Assembly (NCBI GenBank): GCA_965237955.1
Contig: OZ250169.1
Span: 2,880,001 to 2,944,000, forward strand
DNA from: Candidatus Marinacidobacterales bacterium
GTDB taxonomy: Bacteria > Acidobacteriota > Vicinamibacteria > Marinacidobacterales > SMYC01
Reading direction: 5' to 3'
Length of the DNA stretch: 64,000 nucleotides
In this document: positions 5,080 to 15,335 of the stretch, one piece after another
Position numbering within the stretch: position 1 is the first letter of the stretch
Layout: the number at the start of each line of letters is the position of its first letter
Notes under the pieces: generated by a model
Told to the model about the DNA's origin: nothing
Seen by the model: the letters and a program-made list of their open reading frames with translations, nothing else
The model's database searches: none
Translations under genes and position numbers: made by a program

Positions 5080-5695
5080 GGTATTGTCAAGTTGACGTTG
5101 AGCGAGCGAACCTATCGCGTCGAGCTGACTTCCTTTGCTCTCATCGGACGGCACAGGTTACCTCCTGCCAGACGATGAAAGCGCGGTCTCGTAGCTCCCG
5201 ATGATGATGCGCTTGCAACAAATGCCGTCCGACGCGAAAGATATTTTGCACGAGTCCATGCACGGTCAAGAATCGTTGCGCCTGCCCAGGAGCTTTAAAC
5301 TTCCGCATCTGTCGTTCCCGTTGTCGCGTCGGTTCGTGCGAGACTTCGGCTAGGTTGTTTCTGTACTGGTCAGTGTCGTGGACGACGGACGGCATGACCT
5401 CGCGGTGAGCGGCGCTGTAGCTTCTCAGTTTGTCGGTGACCAGCTGCCAGGGCGGACGGCCTTGCCCCTTCAACAGCTTGCGGAAGAATCGTTTGGCGGC
5501 TTTCTGATCACGGCGAGGCTGGACGAGGATATCGATTACATCACCATCTTGGTCTACCGCGCGCCAGAGGTATTGGCGTTCACCTTGTATCTTTATGAAG
5601 ACCTCGTCCAGGTGCCATGTGTCACCGAGACGACCCTGCCGACGCTTCAGTCGTCGAGCGTATTCCGGCCCGAACTTTATGCACCACAGTCGGAC
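5080..5695 (-). mobile_element. IS6-family element, 5'-truncated (transposase remnant 5141-5695)
   Basis: TWHLDEVFIKIQG..YLWRAVD, VTDKLRSY, NNLAEVSH; IR GGTATTGTCAAGTT. Confidence 0.85.
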
Positions 5696-6781
5696 GGCGT
5701 TGTTGCACGGCCCGGAGCAAATCGCTGACCTCCCTGATGCCGGTCGCTGAGTCACCCGGCGCAGTACGTATCGGGCATCCCGAGCGCGGCCATCTTGTTG
5801 AGTATCTCGCACCCAATTCGGTGTTCAACTCGTTGCCTCGCCAACGTTCGTGCTCGCATCTCCGACCCGATGATCGCTTTGTAACGATAGACCGCGTTCT
5901 CCACCATGCTTCGCTTGGTGAAGCCTGAGAGCTTGTACCATTCACGTCGGCCGTGTCTTTCGATTGCACGAATATGGCGATCGCGCTCCCGCATGGCGGT
6001 GTTCGAATTCTGACTGAGCGTCGCGTTTCGTTGCGGCGGAATCACCACGCGCGTCCTTCGTCCAGGGCTGTGCGCTTCGATGGCTTTGTAGACCGTTTCC
6101 TTGTCGTATGCACTGTCCGCCGCCACCCACGCTAGAGGTGCTTGAATCTGTGTTAGCAAAGCGGGGACTCGGGTTGCGTCGCGAGCGCGTGACGCCGTCA
6201 GTTCGGAGGCAACAATGGTGCCCGTCTTGCGATCAACGGCGATGTGCAACTTGCGCCATGCGCGCAGCTTTGGCGGTTTGCGGGCGGTTCCAACATGAAT
6301 CCTCAAGCCCGTGCTATCGATCATCAGGTGGATGGGTTGGTTGCTTGCGGCTTTCGGAATCCGCAGCTTCTTGCGGAGCAGCCTCGAGCGCCGAGACAAC
6401 GTCGAGTAGTCCGGGATTTCGATACCGAGCCCGAGAAGCAAGGCGATCGAGTGCAAGAAGCCTTCAGTTTGGCGGTAGGCGAGCTTGTACACCATCCGGA
6501 CAACCAGGCCCGTTTCAATCGCCATGTCTGAATAGACCCGTTGGCCGCCAGGCTTACCGGTCTTGTCGGCCTTCCAGTTCGCGATTGCCTCCTCGTCAAA
6601 CCAGACTGTCAAATCGCCTCGGCGGCGCAGCCCTTGGTTGTATTCCGCCCAGTTGCGAACGTGGTACTTCTTCTGCTTCGCGTGCTTGTACTGGCAACGC
6701 TTGGGATACTTCATGGCCGAACATACCTCAGCCAGCACAAGATGCGGATTTTGCTCTCAGCCAGAGCGGTGCAACAACGCC
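5696..6781 (-). mobile_element. IS5 family (IS903 group) insertion sequence, slightly diverged copy
   Basis: Same IRs as 1896-2980. Confidence 0.9.
5752..6738 (-). CDS. IS5 family (IS903 group) transposase
   Basis: Close paralog of 1936-2925. Confidence 0.9.
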   Translation of the reverse strand: MLAEVCSAMKYPKRCQYKHAKQKKYHVRNWAEYNQGLRRRGDLTVWFDEEAIANWKADKTGKPGGQRVYSDMAIETGLVVRMVYKLAYRQTEGFLHSIALLLGLGIEIPDYSTLSRRSRLLRKKLRIPKAASNQPIHLMIDSTGLRIHVGTARKPPKLRAWRKLHIAVDRKTGTIVASELTASRARDATRVPALLTQIQAPLAWVAADSAYDKETVYKAIEAHSPGRRTRVVIPPQRNATLSQNSNTAMRERDRHIRAIERHGRREWYKLSGFTKRSMVENAVYRYKAIIGSEMRARTLARQRVEHRIGCEILNKMAALGMPDTYCAG

Positions 6782-6993
6782 GAGAAAAGGCCTCGAATCT
6801 CCTGAGAATTCGATATAAAGCCTTTTGAACTGAAACGGAAAGTGTGCCACTCTTGGTTGGAAATTGGAGGAAGGTCGCAGGAAAAATCGTGAGCCGTGGA
6901 GAGTTTCAACTAAGCATCGTACGCGCAGGGCTCGCGATCTATCTGGGTAGAAACTCCAGTGCTGCATGGAGCGTCCGTTTCATACAATAGCGG

Positions 6994-7150
6994 GAGCATC
7001 CGGGAACCGAGGCCGACTCAACACTGGTGCGATCCAGCCCGTAACTAAGCATGGCCCGGGGATGTTTCGGCACTGTCAGTGGTGACACGCGTGAGCGTGA
7101 TCCCGTTTAGGAGAATGTAACGAATGCCCATCCCTGTTCCCGGATGCTTC
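6994..7150 (+). ncRNA. Putative IS110 bridge RNA
   Basis: TACAAT -10 at 6983-6988; 13-bp closing stem 6995-7007/7136-7148; contains target-junction and donor-junction matches. Confidence 0.65.
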
Positions 7151-7157
7151 ACGAAGT

Positions 7158-8561
7158 ATGAAGGAGCATCTGATGAAGCACAATCGTCGTCAACCCAAGA
7201 AGCGGACTTCTCCATCCCTGCTGAAGCAAATCAACGTGAATGTCGCTGGGATCGATTGCGGCTCGGCCGAGCATTTCGTCGCAGTTCCACCGGAGCGCGA
7301 TCCTAAACCGATCCGTTCCTTCAGGAGTTTCACGGCCGATCTTCATCGGCTCGCCGACTGGCTCGCGACTTGCGGCGTGACGAGCATCGCGATGGAGTCG
7401 ACCGGCGTCTACTGGATCGCACTGTATGAAATCCTCGAAGCCCGTGGCTTCCAGGTCCTCTTGGTCAACGCGCGCCACGTCAAAAACGTCCCGGGGCGCA
7501 AGAGCGATGTCAGCGATTGCGAATGGCTCCGGGAGTTGCACAGCGTGGGGTTGCTCCGCGGAAGCTTTCGACCCGAAGCAGCCATCACCGCCCTTCGTGG
7601 CTACCTCCGCCACCGAGAGACTCTCGTTCAGAGTGCGGTAACCCATATCCAGCGCATGCAGAAGGCTCTCGTGCAAATGAATCTTCAACTCCACCTTGTG
7701 GTCACTGATATCACGGGTGTCACTGGCATGCGGATTCTACGAGACATCGTTGCCGGACAAACCGACCCCCATCGGCTCGCTAAGCACCGTGACCACCGTT
7801 GTCAGTCCTCCGAGGCCGAGATCGCCGCTGCACTCACCGGCAACTATCGCCCCGAGCACCTCTTCGCTCTCAAGCAGAACCTCGAACTCTTTGATGCTTT
7901 TCAGCTCCAGATCCAAACCTGTGACGTGGCCATCGAATCGCACCTGCAGCTTCTAGCTCAACGCTCAACCCCGAACACCTCCTTGCCACCGCCTCGAAAA
8001 TCGCGCAAGCCCCGAGTGAACGAACCTCGGTTCGAGCTCCGGCCTCTCCTCCACCAGATCGCCGGGGTCGACCTCTCCCAGATCGACGCCATCGGACCCT
8101 ATTCCGCGCTTCGCTTGCTCGCCGAGATCGGTACCGATATGAACCGATGGCCTACTGAAAAGCACTTCACTTCCTGGCTTACCCTCGCGCCCAATAACAA
8201 AATCTCCGGCGGGCGACTCCTCAGCTCGAAAACACAACCCTCTGCAAACCGCGCCGCTGGCATTCTCCGCATGGCCGCACTCAGCCTCGGGCGTACACAG
8301 ACCGCTCTCGGCGCCTACTATCGACGTCTCGCCTATCGCGTCGGTAAATCCAAAGCCATCACCGCCACCGCTCGAAAGCTCGCCATTCTCGTCTACCGCA
8401 CTCTCAAGGATGGGCTCGTCTATCAAGACCCCGGGGCCGCCGCCTACAACGCTCAAGATCGCTCCCGTGCCGTGCGCCGCCTGACCCAACGCGCCGCTGA
8501 CCTCGGTTTCGCTCTCATCGACACTCAAACGGGCGACGTCGTTCAGGCGGTAGTTTCTTAG
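7158..8561 (+). CDS. IS110-family DEDD recombinase/transposase
   Basis: AGIDCGS, AMESTGVYW, RKSDVSDC (DEDD); C-terminal Tnp20-like LAP.NKISGG. Confidence 0.92.
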   Translation: MKEHLMKHNRRQPKKRTSPSLLKQINVNVAGIDCGSAEHFVAVPPERDPKPIRSFRSFTADLHRLADWLATCGVTSIAMESTGVYWIALYEILEARGFQVLLVNARHVKNVPGRKSDVSDCEWLRELHSVGLLRGSFRPEAAITALRGYLRHRETLVQSAVTHIQRMQKALVQMNLQLHLVVTDITGVTGMRILRDIVAGQTDPHRLAKHRDHRCQSSEAEIAAALTGNYRPEHLFALKQNLELFDAFQLQIQTCDVAIESHLQLLAQRSTPNTSLPPPRKSRKPRVNEPRFELRPLLHQIAGVDLSQIDAIGPYSALRLLAEIGTDMNRWPTEKHFTSWLTLAPNNKISGGRLLSSKTQPSANRAAGILRMAALSLGRTQTALGAYYRRLAYRVGKSKAITATARKLAILVYRTLKDGLVYQDPGAAAYNAQDRSRAVRRLTQRAADLGFALIDTQTGDVVQAVVS

Positions 8562-8605
8562 GAGAAAGGGCGTGACTCCTGAAACGTTCAACCGGAAGGT
8601 CGCGA

Positions 8606-11757: not shown

Positions 11758-12105
11758 GCGCGAAGGTCCAAGCCAGCCACTTGCTATGAAGCCGAAACCT
11801 CAACGGCGGAGGTTTCGAGAACGGCGTGTAAGTCTATGAGTTCAAGGGCGGACGCGTTTTGATGAACCACAGGCCTGTTGGTCACGCTGGATCCAACCAG
11901 CGACGGCGACGACCAAAAATGTCAAGGGTTGGATCGGCGTGCTCATGACGGAGGATTCTAGCTTCCCTTGGCGAACCAAGCGTAGACCCTACCGACTTTG
12001 GTCAAGAGAGTGTGCCAATCTTAGTTGGACATTGAAACGGCTCCAAACCCCGTGGTTTGATGACGTTGGCAAAACAACATCAAGCCACAAGAGAAAGGAG
12101 CCAAG

Positions 12106-13401
12106 ATGGGAAGTCTGCTACGTACCGCCAAGAAACACAAGAAGTCACGTCGTTTGGGTGAGGTCGAGGTCGTGAAGAGAGAGGAGTACGGGGAGCTTGA
12201 GCTGGATGCCAAGGTCGAGATGATCCGTGCGTTGGTCCCCCTTGGTCTAATGCGCGTTCACGAGTTGCTCGACGACGAGGTGAAGGCGTTGGCGGGAGAG
12301 CGATACGCTCGCAAGGACGAGCCGGAGCGTGGTCGCCGCCACGGAACCAACCCTGGCACGGTGGGACTAGCAGGGCAGCGGGTACCGATCCGTGTGCCAC
12401 GGGTTCGGAGCATCGAGGGAGGAGAGATACCGCTTCGTTCCTACGAGGCGCTGAGCGCGGGTGGAGAGGTGAATGATCTTTTGCTGAGACGAGTGCTGTA
12501 CGGAATCTCGTGTCGCAACTACGAGGCGGCAGCGGAGGCGATTCCGGGTGCCATCGGGCTGTCGAGTTCGACGGTGTCTCGAGGTTTCGTGCAAGCGAGC
12601 GCGTCGAAGCTCCGGGAGATGCAAGAACGAGATCTATCCGGTGAAGATGTGGTCGCGATGTTCCTGGACGGGAAGACGTTCGCCGAGGCAATGATGGTCG
12701 TAGCGCTGGGCATCACGGTTTCCGGGGAAAAACGCTTCTTGGGCTTCGTGGAAACGGACACGGAGAACGCGCAGGTGTTGACGCCGTTCCTGCGTTGCTT
12801 GCTCGAGCGGGGACTCGATATCTCCCAGGGTCTACTGGTGGTCATCGACGGCGCCAAGGGCCTCCAGGCGGCCGTAAAGAAGGCATTCCGTAAGCGGGCC
12901 CTAATACAACGGTGCCAGTGGCATAAACGTGAAAATGTCGTGAGCTACCTGTCCAAGGGCGAGCAGGCGTCGTTGCGCAAGCGGCTGCAGCGGGCCTACG
13001 ACAGGCCAGAATACAAAGAGGCCCTCGCTGCACTCAACCAACTCCACGGTGAGTTGGAAGAGCGGAACCAATCCGCAGCTGGCAGCCTGGAGGAAGGGCT
13101 CGAGGCGACACTGACGCTGCATCGACTGGGCGTGTACGGCATGCTGGGCCGTTCCTTCAAGACAACGAACTGCCTTGAATCCGTCAATGCTCTCGTTGAG
13201 GAACGCTGCGCGAAGGTCGACCACTGGAAGAACTCCAGCCAACGCCAGCGGTGGCTAGCGACGGCGCTCGTGGATATTGAACCGCGCTTGCGGAAGGTGG
13301 TGGGGTACCGCCATCTTCCCAAGCTTCGCGAAGCTCTCAAACGGGAACTGAAGATCGAGACGAAGACATCAACGCTATCGACGACGAAGAAGGTCGCGTA
13401 A
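12106..13401 (+). CDS. IS256-family (Mutator-like) transposase
   Basis: FLDGK, VIDGAKGL, QRCQWHK, TTNCLESVN motifs. Confidence 0.9.
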   Translation: MGSLLRTAKKHKKSRRLGEVEVVKREEYGELELDAKVEMIRALVPLGLMRVHELLDDEVKALAGERYARKDEPERGRRHGTNPGTVGLAGQRVPIRVPRVRSIEGGEIPLRSYEALSAGGEVNDLLLRRVLYGISCRNYEAAAEAIPGAIGLSSSTVSRGFVQASASKLREMQERDLSGEDVVAMFLDGKTFAEAMMVVALGITVSGEKRFLGFVETDTENAQVLTPFLRCLLERGLDISQGLLVVIDGAKGLQAAVKKAFRKRALIQRCQWHKRENVVSYLSKGEQASLRKRLQRAYDRPEYKEALAALNQLHGELEERNQSAAGSLEEGLEATLTLHRLGVYGMLGRSFKTTNCLESVNALVEERCAKVDHWKNSSQRQRWLATALVDIEPRLRKVVGYRHLPKLREALKRELKIETKTSTLSTTKKVA

Positions 13402-13508
13402 TCGTGAGCCGTGGAGAGTTTCAACTAAGCATCGTACGCGCAGGGCTCGCGATCTATCTGGGTAGAAACTCCAGTGCTGCATGGAGCGTCCGTTTCATAC
13501 AATAGCGG

Positions 13509-13665
13509 GAGCATCCGGGAACCGAGGCCGACTCAACACTGGTGCGATCCAGCCCGTAACTAAGCATGGCCCGGGGATGTTTCGGCACTGTCAGTGGTGA
13601 CACGCGTGAGCGTGATCCCGTTTAGGAGAATGTAACGAATGCCCATCCCTGTTCCCGGATGCTTC
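13509..13665 (+). ncRNA. Putative IS110 bridge RNA, copy 2
   Basis: Identical to 6994-7150. Confidence 0.65.
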
Positions 13666-13672
13666 ACGAAGT

Positions 13673-15076
13673 ATGAAGGAGCATCTGATGAAGCACAATC
13701 GTCGTCAACCCAAGAAGCGGACTTCTCCATCCCTGCTGAAGCAAATCAACGTGAATGTCGCTGGGATCGATTGCGGCTCGGCCGAGCATTTCGTCGCAGT
13801 TCCACCGGAGCGCGATCCTAAACCGATCCGTTCCTTCAGGAGTTTCACGGCCGATCTTCATCGGCTCGCCGACTGGCTCGCGACTTGCGGCGTGACGAGC
13901 ATCGCGATGGAGTCGACCGGCGTCTACTGGATCGCACTGTATGAAATCCTCGAAGCCCGTGGCTTCCAGGTCCTCTTGGTCAACGCGCGCCACGTCAAAA
14001 ACGTCCCGGGGCGCAAGAGCGATGTCAGCGATTGCGAATGGCTCCGGGAGTTGCACAGCGTGGGGTTGCTCCGCGGAAGCTTTCGACCCGAAGCAGCCAT
14101 CACCGCCCTTCGTGGCTACCTCCGCCACCGAGAGACTCTCGTTCAGAGTGCGGTAACCCATATCCAGCGCATGCAGAAGGCTCTCGTGCAAATGAATCTT
14201 CAACTCCACCTTGTGGTCACTGATATCACGGGTGTCACTGGCATGCGGATTCTACGAGACATCGTTGCCGGACAAACCGACCCCCATCGGCTCGCTAAGC
14301 ACCGTGACCACCGTTGTCAGTCCTCCGAGGCCGAGATCGCCGCTGCACTCACCGGCAACTATCGCCCCGAGCACCTCTTCGCTCTCAAGCAGAACCTCGA
14401 ACTCTTTGATGCTTTTCAGCTCCAGATCCAAACCTGTGACGTGGCCATCGAATCGCACCTGCAGCTTCTAGCTCAACGCTCAACCCCGAACACCTCCTTG
14501 CCACCGCCTCGAAAATCGCGCAAGCCCCGAGTGAACGAACCTCGGTTCGAGCTCCGGCCTCTCCTCCACCAGATCGCCGGGGTCGACCTCTCCCAGATCG
14601 ACGCCATCGGACCCTATTCCGCGCTTCGCTTGCTCGCCGAGATCGGTACCGATATGAACCGATGGCCTACTGAAAAGCACTTCACTTCCTGGCTTACCCT
14701 CGCGCCCAATAACAAAATCTCCGGCGGGCGACTCCTCAGCTCGAAAACACAACCCTCTGCAAACCGGGCCGCTGGCATTCTCCGCATGGCCGCACTCAGC
14801 CTCGGGCGTACACAGACCGCTCTCGGCGCCTACTATCGACGTCTCGCCTATCGCGTCGGTAAATCCAAAGCCATCACCGCCACCGCTCGAAAGCTCGCCA
14901 TTCTCGTCTACCGCACTCTCAAGGATGGGCTCGTCTATCAAGACCCCGGGGCCGCCGCCTACAACGCTCAAGATCGCTCCCGTGCCGTGCGCCGCCTGAC
15001 CCAACGCGCCGCTGACCTCGGTTTCGCTCTCATCGACACTCAAACGGGCGACGTCGTTCAGGCGGTAGTTTCTTAG
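13673..15076 (+). CDS. IS110-family recombinase/transposase
   Basis: Same protein as 7158-8561. Confidence 0.92.
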   Translation: MKEHLMKHNRRQPKKRTSPSLLKQINVNVAGIDCGSAEHFVAVPPERDPKPIRSFRSFTADLHRLADWLATCGVTSIAMESTGVYWIALYEILEARGFQVLLVNARHVKNVPGRKSDVSDCEWLRELHSVGLLRGSFRPEAAITALRGYLRHRETLVQSAVTHIQRMQKALVQMNLQLHLVVTDITGVTGMRILRDIVAGQTDPHRLAKHRDHRCQSSEAEIAAALTGNYRPEHLFALKQNLELFDAFQLQIQTCDVAIESHLQLLAQRSTPNTSLPPPRKSRKPRVNEPRFELRPLLHQIAGVDLSQIDAIGPYSALRLLAEIGTDMNRWPTEKHFTSWLTLAPNNKISGGRLLSSKTQPSANRAAGILRMAALSLGRTQTALGAYYRRLAYRVGKSKAITATARKLAILVYRTLKDGLVYQDPGAAAYNAQDRSRAVRRLTQRAADLGFALIDTQTGDVVQAVVS

Positions 15077-15335
15077 GAGGAGAATGGGCTTGACTCTTGG
15101 TCAATATCCAATCCCTTGAAACTTCCGATCCATGCTTCCGAACGACGGATTCGTCAGTCGCTAGTCCCTCCAAGCTTTTCTCAGATAGACGGTTATCTGA
15201 TCGAGGGTTCCGGCCTTACTGTCCGATCGGTGAAAATGAGATCCAAACTTTTGAACACGAAGAATATCGAGCAGGAGTCGGCCCGCTAATCTACTCATTT
15301 CTAGAGACTTACGCATTATCTTTCGGTGCTAGCTG

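Follow-up and report, generated by a model that had tools for sequence, protein, structure and literature searches.

A predicted IS110 bridge RNA with inverted target polarity and two donor guides that match one strand of the element ends

The predicted bridge RNA of an IS110 element from a Candidatus Marinacidobacterales genome carries two donor guides that, judged by covariation across homologs, both match a single strand of the element ends. The best mechanism for this layout, with a probability of roughly 0.6 on sequence comparison, is a donor formed by the minus strand folded back on itself, of which one strand would be exchanged. The element lies in a stretch of 64,000 nucleotides, hereafter the window, whose coordinates are used throughout unless another source is named.

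The element occupies positions 6915–8562 of the plus strand, with 1648 bp between two cores, and 9 of 11 paired copies have this length. Both cores are AG on the plus strand (left 6913–6914, right 8563–8564) and CT on the minus strand. Across the genome, the element has 11 left ends and 17 right ends; CAACTAAG closes all 11 left junctions, and CTTAGGAG terminates all 17 right ends. Core and boundaries were assigned from 11 paired insertions and from empty sites, because 5 of the 11 rebuilt insertion sites also occur as an empty copy in the genome. The short core at both ends and the single core at the empty site are as in the IS110 group. A core at TT-AG-GAG with a ribosome-site-like target was rejected, as CAACTAAGGAG has 0 occurrences and the empty sites have the flank directly after CAACTAAG.

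Six of the 11 insertion sites, judged by eye, are IS256-type terminal repeats. The left target flank in the window (6885–6912, plus strand) is a remnant of such a repeat that ends in CAACTA, and its sequence recurs at 13404–13427, after an IS256 ORF. An IS256-family element at 12006–15096, with an 8-bp duplication (TTGGTCAA), carries CAACTAAG, the IS110 target, 14 bp inside both ends, and a second copy of the IS110 element (13430–15077, plus strand) lies within its right terminal repeat, where three extra bases (GAG) precede the normal flank. Just 5' of the repeat remnant, an IS5-family element (ORF 5752–6738, minus strand) and an IS6-type ORF (5141–5812) lie within 5141–6782. In a further copy of the element (G000:C1:3178809–3182437, minus strand), another kind of insertion sequence, 3 kb long and flanked by a duplication of CTAAG, interrupts the 3' target guide. 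In tandem arrays (L003, L058, L060, L166; G000:C1:5054374 and 4911500) an element is inserted at its own or a related IS110 right end; in L166, the target guide equals the right end of the neighbour. A separate IS110-family element of 361 aa with a long downstream non-coding region, IS1111-like in this respect, is found at G000:C1:630586 and in about 15 more copies, of which the one at 2860842 is preceded by short tandem repeats of its end sequence.

The recombinase gene (7173–8561, plus strand) encodes 462 aa with PF01548 and PF02371 and scores 253 bits against NF033542 (cut-off 140). Its DEDD RuvC-like domain, with acidic residues D28/E75/D112/D115, and its Transposase_20 domain, with catalytic serine S345, place the protein in the IS110 family; a PDB sequence search gave no match at E 0.001. 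The gap from the stop codon to the end of the core is 3 nt. Relatives of this long-transposase IS110 branch are found in Acidobacteriota, Proteobacteria, Cyanobacteria and others. The homolog set comprised 163 loci (77 from genomes, 80 from metagenomes, 5 from plasmids, and the window), of which 150 had enough upstream DNA and 149 kept the RNA motifs, giving 91 clusters below 95% RNA identity whose proteins are 49–100% identical. Four junctions at tandem copies were removed. A left junction was available in 84 clusters and a right junction in 84; the aligned core column reads AG or AA in 83 and 76 of these, and a repeat anchor was present in 81. Junction columns were taken from alignments of the element ends, not from guide searches. 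Figures from permutation tests across homologs are inflated by shared ancestry; co-changes were counted in 40 disjoint pairs of nearest relatives.

The core at the left junctions of the homologs is AG in 76 of 84 and AA in 7. AA-core members (L158–L164, on proteobacterial plasmids) have an A-run guide and are sited in an A-run of IS3-type elements, which is probably a frameshift signal. The targets of 29 of 83 homologs end in GTTAG (L006, L061, L066, L070 and others), an ending that we take to resemble the right core of integron attC sites, and several flanks resemble attC hairpins. A held-out set of eight elements was formed from two other families of the same genome (about 50% and 26% identical) and 6 of 10 distant plasmid loci; in the remaining 4, left out, both ends and the donor guide were not readable. 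Landmarks in this set were placed by hand, and two of the eight elements are close relatives of each other.

The bridge RNA predicted at 6995–7148 (plus strand) is almost certainly real. A 13-bp closing stem (6995–7007/7136–7148) surrounds a target loop (7011–7056) and a donor loop (7058–7135), and a predicted −10 box, TACAAT, at 6983–6988 of the same strand is conserved (T in 75 of 91, A in 85 and the last T in 88). Box and stem lie where the earlier note had placed them, as do the words GATGTT, ATGC and GCCCAT discussed below. A sigma-70 scan of 6800–7300 called no promoter and found no −35 consensus, and an Rfam scan of the window returned no match. The RNA folds with a z of −2.93; for 37 pairs counted on 40 sequences, 91.6% are paired and 17 pairs have a compensatory change, a level reached in 0 of 500 shuffles. 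Each loop follows one scaffold, namely an arm, CANU, a GGUG hairpin CCC, GU, 7 nt, 2 nt and U. A long non-coding left end, a two-loop RNA and guides that covary with target and donor are all found here, as in the IS110 group. The AG-core IS110 bridge RNA proposed in the earlier note is upheld, its core by the 11 paired insertions and its guides by their covariation with targets in homologs. Contigs from four RNA runs cover pieces of the region (one spans 6876–7067), coverage of a kind that cannot show a transcript. Among the contigs of four further runs no circle junction was found, and the one word in the genome that resembles such a junction lies in unrelated sequence; neither result shows that the junction is absent.

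In the target loop, AACUAAG (7043–7049, plus strand), at the position of the RTG, is identical to the left flank plus the core. Positions 7043–7047 are identical to the five bases left of the core in 375 of 420 comparisons (null 174±9; 84 elements with 44 different 5-mers), and 42 co-changes stand against 0 crossed in the disjoint pairs. The guide tracks its target across homologs, and the earlier note was right to see 7043–7049 as the segment that sets the target; guides of AA-core elements mostly end in AA as well. The 5' target guide, at the LTG position (7015–7024, plus strand), is complementary to the core G and the right target flank on the plus strand. Its positions 7018–7021 are complementary to flank positions +1 to +4 in 189 of 336 comparisons (null 124±7), with 12 co-changes and 1 crossed in the disjoint pairs. 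In its own genome this guide fits poorly, the expected TTG at +1 to +3 occurring at 0 of 11 sites, so targeting there would depend mostly on the 3' guide. By covariation of the predicted guides, the target is read as a duplex, by the 3' guide on the minus strand (left flank) and by the 5' guide on the plus strand (right flank), and the polarity of the site is inverted with respect to IS621. Wobble pairs of the 3' target guide are biased (53 vs 11), but the linker U at 7042 accounts for most of this, and the bias was set aside.

The 3' donor guide, UUAGGAG (7107–7113, plus strand), at the RDG position, is identical to the right end of the element plus the core. It matches at 7/7 positions in 71 of 76 elements, and its positions 7109 (74/76 vs 56) and 7110 (75/76 vs 61) covary. 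The 5' donor guide, at the LDG position (7072–7079, plus strand), matches 6938–6945 and not the bases adjacent to the core. A 5' donor guide adjoining the core was tried and rejected, being at chance against +1 to +8 of the left end. The top signal of an unbiased scan of the left end is RNA position 7073 against position +25 on the same strand, and the predicted internal donor site (6938–6945, minus strand) is accordingly placed 24–31 nt inside the left end. Anchored on the conserved word AGAAAC, RNA positions 7073–7076 agree with this site on the same strand in 216 of 324 comparisons (null 117±8), and positions 7072 and 7079 covary with it too. Controls slid by −3 to +2 are at or below chance, and only +3 is slightly above (124 vs 112). 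In the 40 disjoint pairs, guide and site show 14 co-changes and 2 crossed (slid controls 1–3), a tally close to that of the 5' target guide; changes in the RNA alone number 24 and changes in the DNA alone 42. Where the left end has another length (35 elements), the match follows the inverted repeat described below (96/175) and not the core (34/175). The match is loose: among 81 elements it is 5/5 in 7, 4/5 in 29 and at most 2 in 25, most having 3 or 4 of 5. In the held-out elements, with landmarks placed by hand, the 5' donor guide agrees with its site at 39 of 48 positions if the register may differ by one base (null 23.8; 4/40320 permutations) and at exact register at 21 of 48 (null 14.6; 1030/40320). 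An unanchored test of the longest shared word in eight distant elements was weak (P 0.03–1.0) and was replaced by the anchored one.

The internal donor site sits between two predicted stems in the DNA of the ends. The outer one is an inverted repeat whose left copy, AGAAACT (6949–6955, plus strand), lies 35 nt inside the left end and is the complement of the right copy, AGTTTCT (8552–8558, plus strand), 4 nt from the core. Its six central pairs are near-invariant, and the two outer pairs covary (63/70 vs 52; 51/70 vs 33.5). The inner one is a stem-loop of the left end (6922–6936), in which CGCG at 6922–6925 pairs with CGCG at 6933–6936; it begins 7 nt past the core and stops 6 nt short of the core-facing base. 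In 81 relatives 347 of 486 cells are Watson–Crick, all six pairs exceed permutation, and the disjoint pairs give 15 co-changes against 0 crossed. The bases between the two stems are not complementary (42/280; 118/486). When rebuilt junctions are folded as DNA, the repeat stem appears in 65 of 70 elements on either strand, with a mean z near −2.4; the fold of the junction is weak (−7.2 kcal/mol), and the left junction by itself also folds weakly (z −1.5).

The inverted repeat is present in 8 of 8 held-out elements, down to about 26% identity, and a perfect inner stem is at most 3 bp in 3 of 8. The family about 50% identical has a compensatory change in the inverted repeat and an inner stem of 7 bp, and the family about 26% identical keeps the spacing of the ends around a 40-nt loop. 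An IS110 family with a protein of 428 aa and a TG core, found at G000:C1:4337275 and in six further copies and targeting a site within coding sequence, shares the RNA scaffold and polarity and has a 40-nt loop in its left-end stem.

Since the guides of one loop are antiparallel, their DNA partners must be antiparallel as well, and two partners on one strand need a turn-back. On the fold-back mechanism, the inverted repeat would pair and the inner stem would form on the minus strand, leaving an unpaired bubble (4 nt, the core, and 6/7 nt) that needs no melting. The bubble would set the two donor sites antiparallel and in register, like a duplex donor, and would bring the internal site to face the core exactly. 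In both donor and target, the recombinase would then cleave the minus strand after CT and swap that strand, from which both observed junctions would result, and the handshake guides would favour the insertion product. Since the internal site does not occur as a boundary, the second strand would be made by replication or repair. The folding strand is assigned from the guides alone, as wobble pairs show no clear strand bias (G–T vs A–C mismatches, 25 vs 26 and 15 vs 8). The substrate is most likely a single-stranded circle or a transiently exposed single strand, and a cruciform arm is conceivable. In the integrated state, pairing of the repeats around the looped-out gene could leave both donor guides matched at the right end. 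Counting against a fold-back donor, the inverted repeat has an invariant centre, which would suit a protein site as well.

That invariant centre is what one would expect of a duplex donor bound as two separate half-sites, in which the inverted repeats are protein sites and the DNA is bent or looped by protein. The 3' guide would open the right end, and the 5' guide would anchor the uncut internal site in double-stranded DNA. Wobble pairs without strand bias suit this arrangement, half-match and donor–donor reactions are reported for IS621 in the portions of that literature consulted, and in the accessible part of the ISPpu9 study a mutant of the left-end palindrome still makes circles, as seen by qualitative PCR (PMC12288879). 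Two half-sites nevertheless leave unexplained the covarying inner stem, the two covarying outer pairs of the repeat and the fixed 7 + stem + 6 + 2 + 4 spacing that flanks a loop of variable length, and this alternative is considered unlikely, though a serious one.

More doubtful is a donor known by its 3' guide only, as a natural half-match, with a hairpin that regulates transcription. The likeness of 7072–7079 to the left end would then be a relic of duplication or the mark of a shared RNA partner, for instance an antisense RNA. The looseness of the 5' donor match would be accounted for, permutation tests inflated by shared ancestry would overstate that match, and ISPpu9 has an antisense RNA that spans its 5' region, as far as the consulted text describes it. 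Against this, co-change persists in the disjoint nearest-relative pairs (14 vs 2), the internal-site match is kept down to about 26% protein identity, and its register is that of a duplex guide. The internal site, furthermore, is upstream of the −10 box and thus outside the predicted transcript. A natural half-match is considered quite improbable.

The earlier note had instead read each loop as spelling a product junction, with matches 3–4 nt past the core and with GATGTT, ATGC or GCCCAT as right-hand guides. For the element at 6915–8562, match lengths of 10 nt and of up to 11 nt are indeed found. On the left, AACTAAGCAT (7043–7052) is identical to the junction at 6908–6917; on the right, TTAGGAGAATG (7107–7117) is exact at 8 of 17 right ends of the genome, whereas it agrees with its own junction, TTAGGAGAAAG (8558–8568), at 10 of 11 positions, 9 in a row. 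The matches exceed chance: among 3000 dinucleotide shuffles of 6983–7150, a 10-nt left match arose in 0, a 9-nt right match in 26 and both in 0. The two matches, taken for left guides, are 3'-side guides at the RTG and RDG positions of IS621. Their first two bases past the core are indeed handshake guides: in the target loop, CA (7050–7051, plus strand) is identical to the two bases with which the element opens, an agreement seen in 72 of 83 elements, and position +2 past the core covaries (73/84 vs 57.7). At the third base, all 84 of 84 RNAs have T, and agreement with the DNA there is at chance (17/84 vs 17.0), so the overrun amounts to a 2-nt handshake plus coincidence. For the target-loop dinucleotide, occurrence in own targets is 3/76 vs 7.6 expected, a figure that is suggestive only. 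The donor-loop handshake guide, AA (7114–7115, plus strand), shows a weak preference for target +1,+2 (53/168 vs 39); its first base matches the element's own donor in 0 of 83, and both target bases are matched in 15 of 76. As for the proposed right-hand guides, covariation with DNA is absent for GATGTT (7061–7066; 181/498 vs 183) and ATGC (7124–7127; 105/332 vs 109) and slight for GCCCAT (7126–7131; 143/456 vs 135, 223/2000; first three positions 73/228 vs 63, 33/2000), and most of GATGTT pairs with most of GCCCAT in the stem that closes the donor loop. With the third base an invariant part of the scaffold, a 10-nt run in 11 of 83 junctions on the left and 3 of 76 on the right, and the proposed guides placed in a stem and barely or not covarying, the product-junction reading is scarcely credible. 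The 5' guides (7018–7022 for the target, 7072–7079 for the donor), the inverted polarity and the fold-back ends had no part in that account.

Folded single strands are known as recombination sites from integron attC and from the ends of IS200/IS605 elements. In attC, one strand is exchanged and the product is then resolved by replication. These folded sites are read by protein (a tyrosine recombinase or an HUH transposase), not by an RNA guide. It is an even bet whether the long-transposase IS110 branch (400–460 aa, probably including ISPpu9) consists of RNA-guided single-strand recombinases with a self-folded bubble donor, an attC-like site. The cut strand would then be read only by the 3' guide and handshake, and the 5' guide would hold a separate, uncut part. 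Whether IS110 elements move by one strand or two is under active dispute, and a family found in nature with guides laid out to suit a single-stranded, folded donor would make the question directly testable; for laboratory work, ISPpu9 of P. putida KT2440 seems to be a model already at hand. If true, a folded donor would explain the conserved palindrome in the A box of ISPpu9. Guide calling and reprogramming in this branch would need correction for an inverted polarity and for a donor that takes in about 45 nt of the left end. For genome editing, the layout suggests bridge recombinases that take single-stranded or hairpin donors.

By its sequence, the element is an IS110-group bridge system that resembles IS621 in scaffold and handshake and departs from it in predicted polarity, donor geometry and promoter position. 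Comparisons in this and the following paragraphs draw on the consulted portions of the cited sources. Like IS621 and ISCro4 (IS622), it combines a DEDD + Tnp recombinase with a two-loop RNA at the left end, the target loop before the donor loop (PMC11208160, PMC11208158, PMC13626964). Each 3' guide of IS621 comes after a GU linker and is succeeded by a 2-nt handshake guide and a U, and the two guides of one loop bind antiparallel DNA (PMC11208158). The same order is seen here (7041–7052 and 7105–7116), with a GU linker, a 7-nt 3' guide ending in AG, a 2-nt handshake and U, and the core is likewise a dinucleotide, AG being the CT core of IS621 viewed from the opposite strand. In the integrated state, the target loop matches the left junction over a 9-nt run, much as in the locked state described for IS621. 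Conversely, IS621 has CT on the gene strand, its 5' guides read the bottom strand and its 3' guides the top, whereas the order of the target guides is reversed here. In IS621, the arms read by the two donor guides adjoin each other in a duplex and lie on opposite strands; those of the present element match one strand, about 24 nt apart. The IS621 promoter forms at the circle junction, whereas the −10 box here, compared by position only, is 70 nt inside the left end. The proteins of IS621 and IS622 have 315–330 aa against 462 aa, and the 3' target guide dominates in this element, unlike in IS621.

The order of guides also invites comparison with the IS1111 group, in whose seekRNA the complement of the top strand comes ahead of the match to the bottom strand, as here; it is the reverse of that in IS110-family ISEc21 (PMC11187229). 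Some IS1111 elements likewise target the ends of other elements (PMC11187229). Their sub-terminal inverted repeats are 7–17 bp, to which the 7-bp repeat here, with a left copy that starts 33–41 nt inside the end, may or may not correspond. The IS1111 RNA lies downstream of the gene and the protein has 330–350 aa, whereas the RNA described here is upstream of a 462-aa gene.

The IS110 literature searched, which also took in passages of 10.64898/2026.08.14.744561, 10.1101/2025.05.14.653916, PMC12045711 and PMC13604230, describes neither a donor guide with an internal match on the same strand nor a donor that is folded. A recent survey rebuilt donors from 25 nt on either side of the core (10.64898/2026.10.21.760802), windows that would end just short of the internal donor site; inverted polarity may already be shown in the supplements of that survey, in bioRxiv supplements or in subscription papers. 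A hairpin on the target side is reported for ISPpu10 (10.64898/2026.03.19.712850). Single-strand excision and top-strand-only integration have been described for IS621 and CazIS110-1, the latter preferring a duplex donor about 20-fold at one junction (10.1101/2025.10.25.684509; 10.64898/2026.08.31.748434). Those copy-out pathways resemble the mechanism proposed here in that one strand is excised and integrated and single-stranded circles occur; they differ in that the consulted text describes no folded donor.

A like end layout, judged by eye, is found in ISPpu9 of Pseudomonas putida KT2440, which has an AG core and a native internal promoter with a start site about 84 nt from the left end (PMC12288879, PMC8450116). 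By eye, its A box in Table S2 reads as AG, 7 nt, a palindrome and, from 35 nt, a repeat that complements the B box. In the consulted text, the authors did not map guides, took the group to lack inverted repeats and left the palindrome unexplained (PMC12288879). That the palindrome mutant still makes circles counts against a strict need for the inner stem, although junctions were wrong or missing when the B box, or the bases next to the left AG on its inner side, had been altered (PMC12288879). The targets differ, being REP sequences for ISPpu9 and mostly IS256 ends for the present element. Two ssr9 primers of that study share the scaffold words of the RNA described here and repeat 7 nt of the B-box end, one of them (Table S1) reading CCCG, one base and then the last 7 nt of the B box (PMC12288879). 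Ssr9 may itself be a bridge-type RNA or a donor loop.
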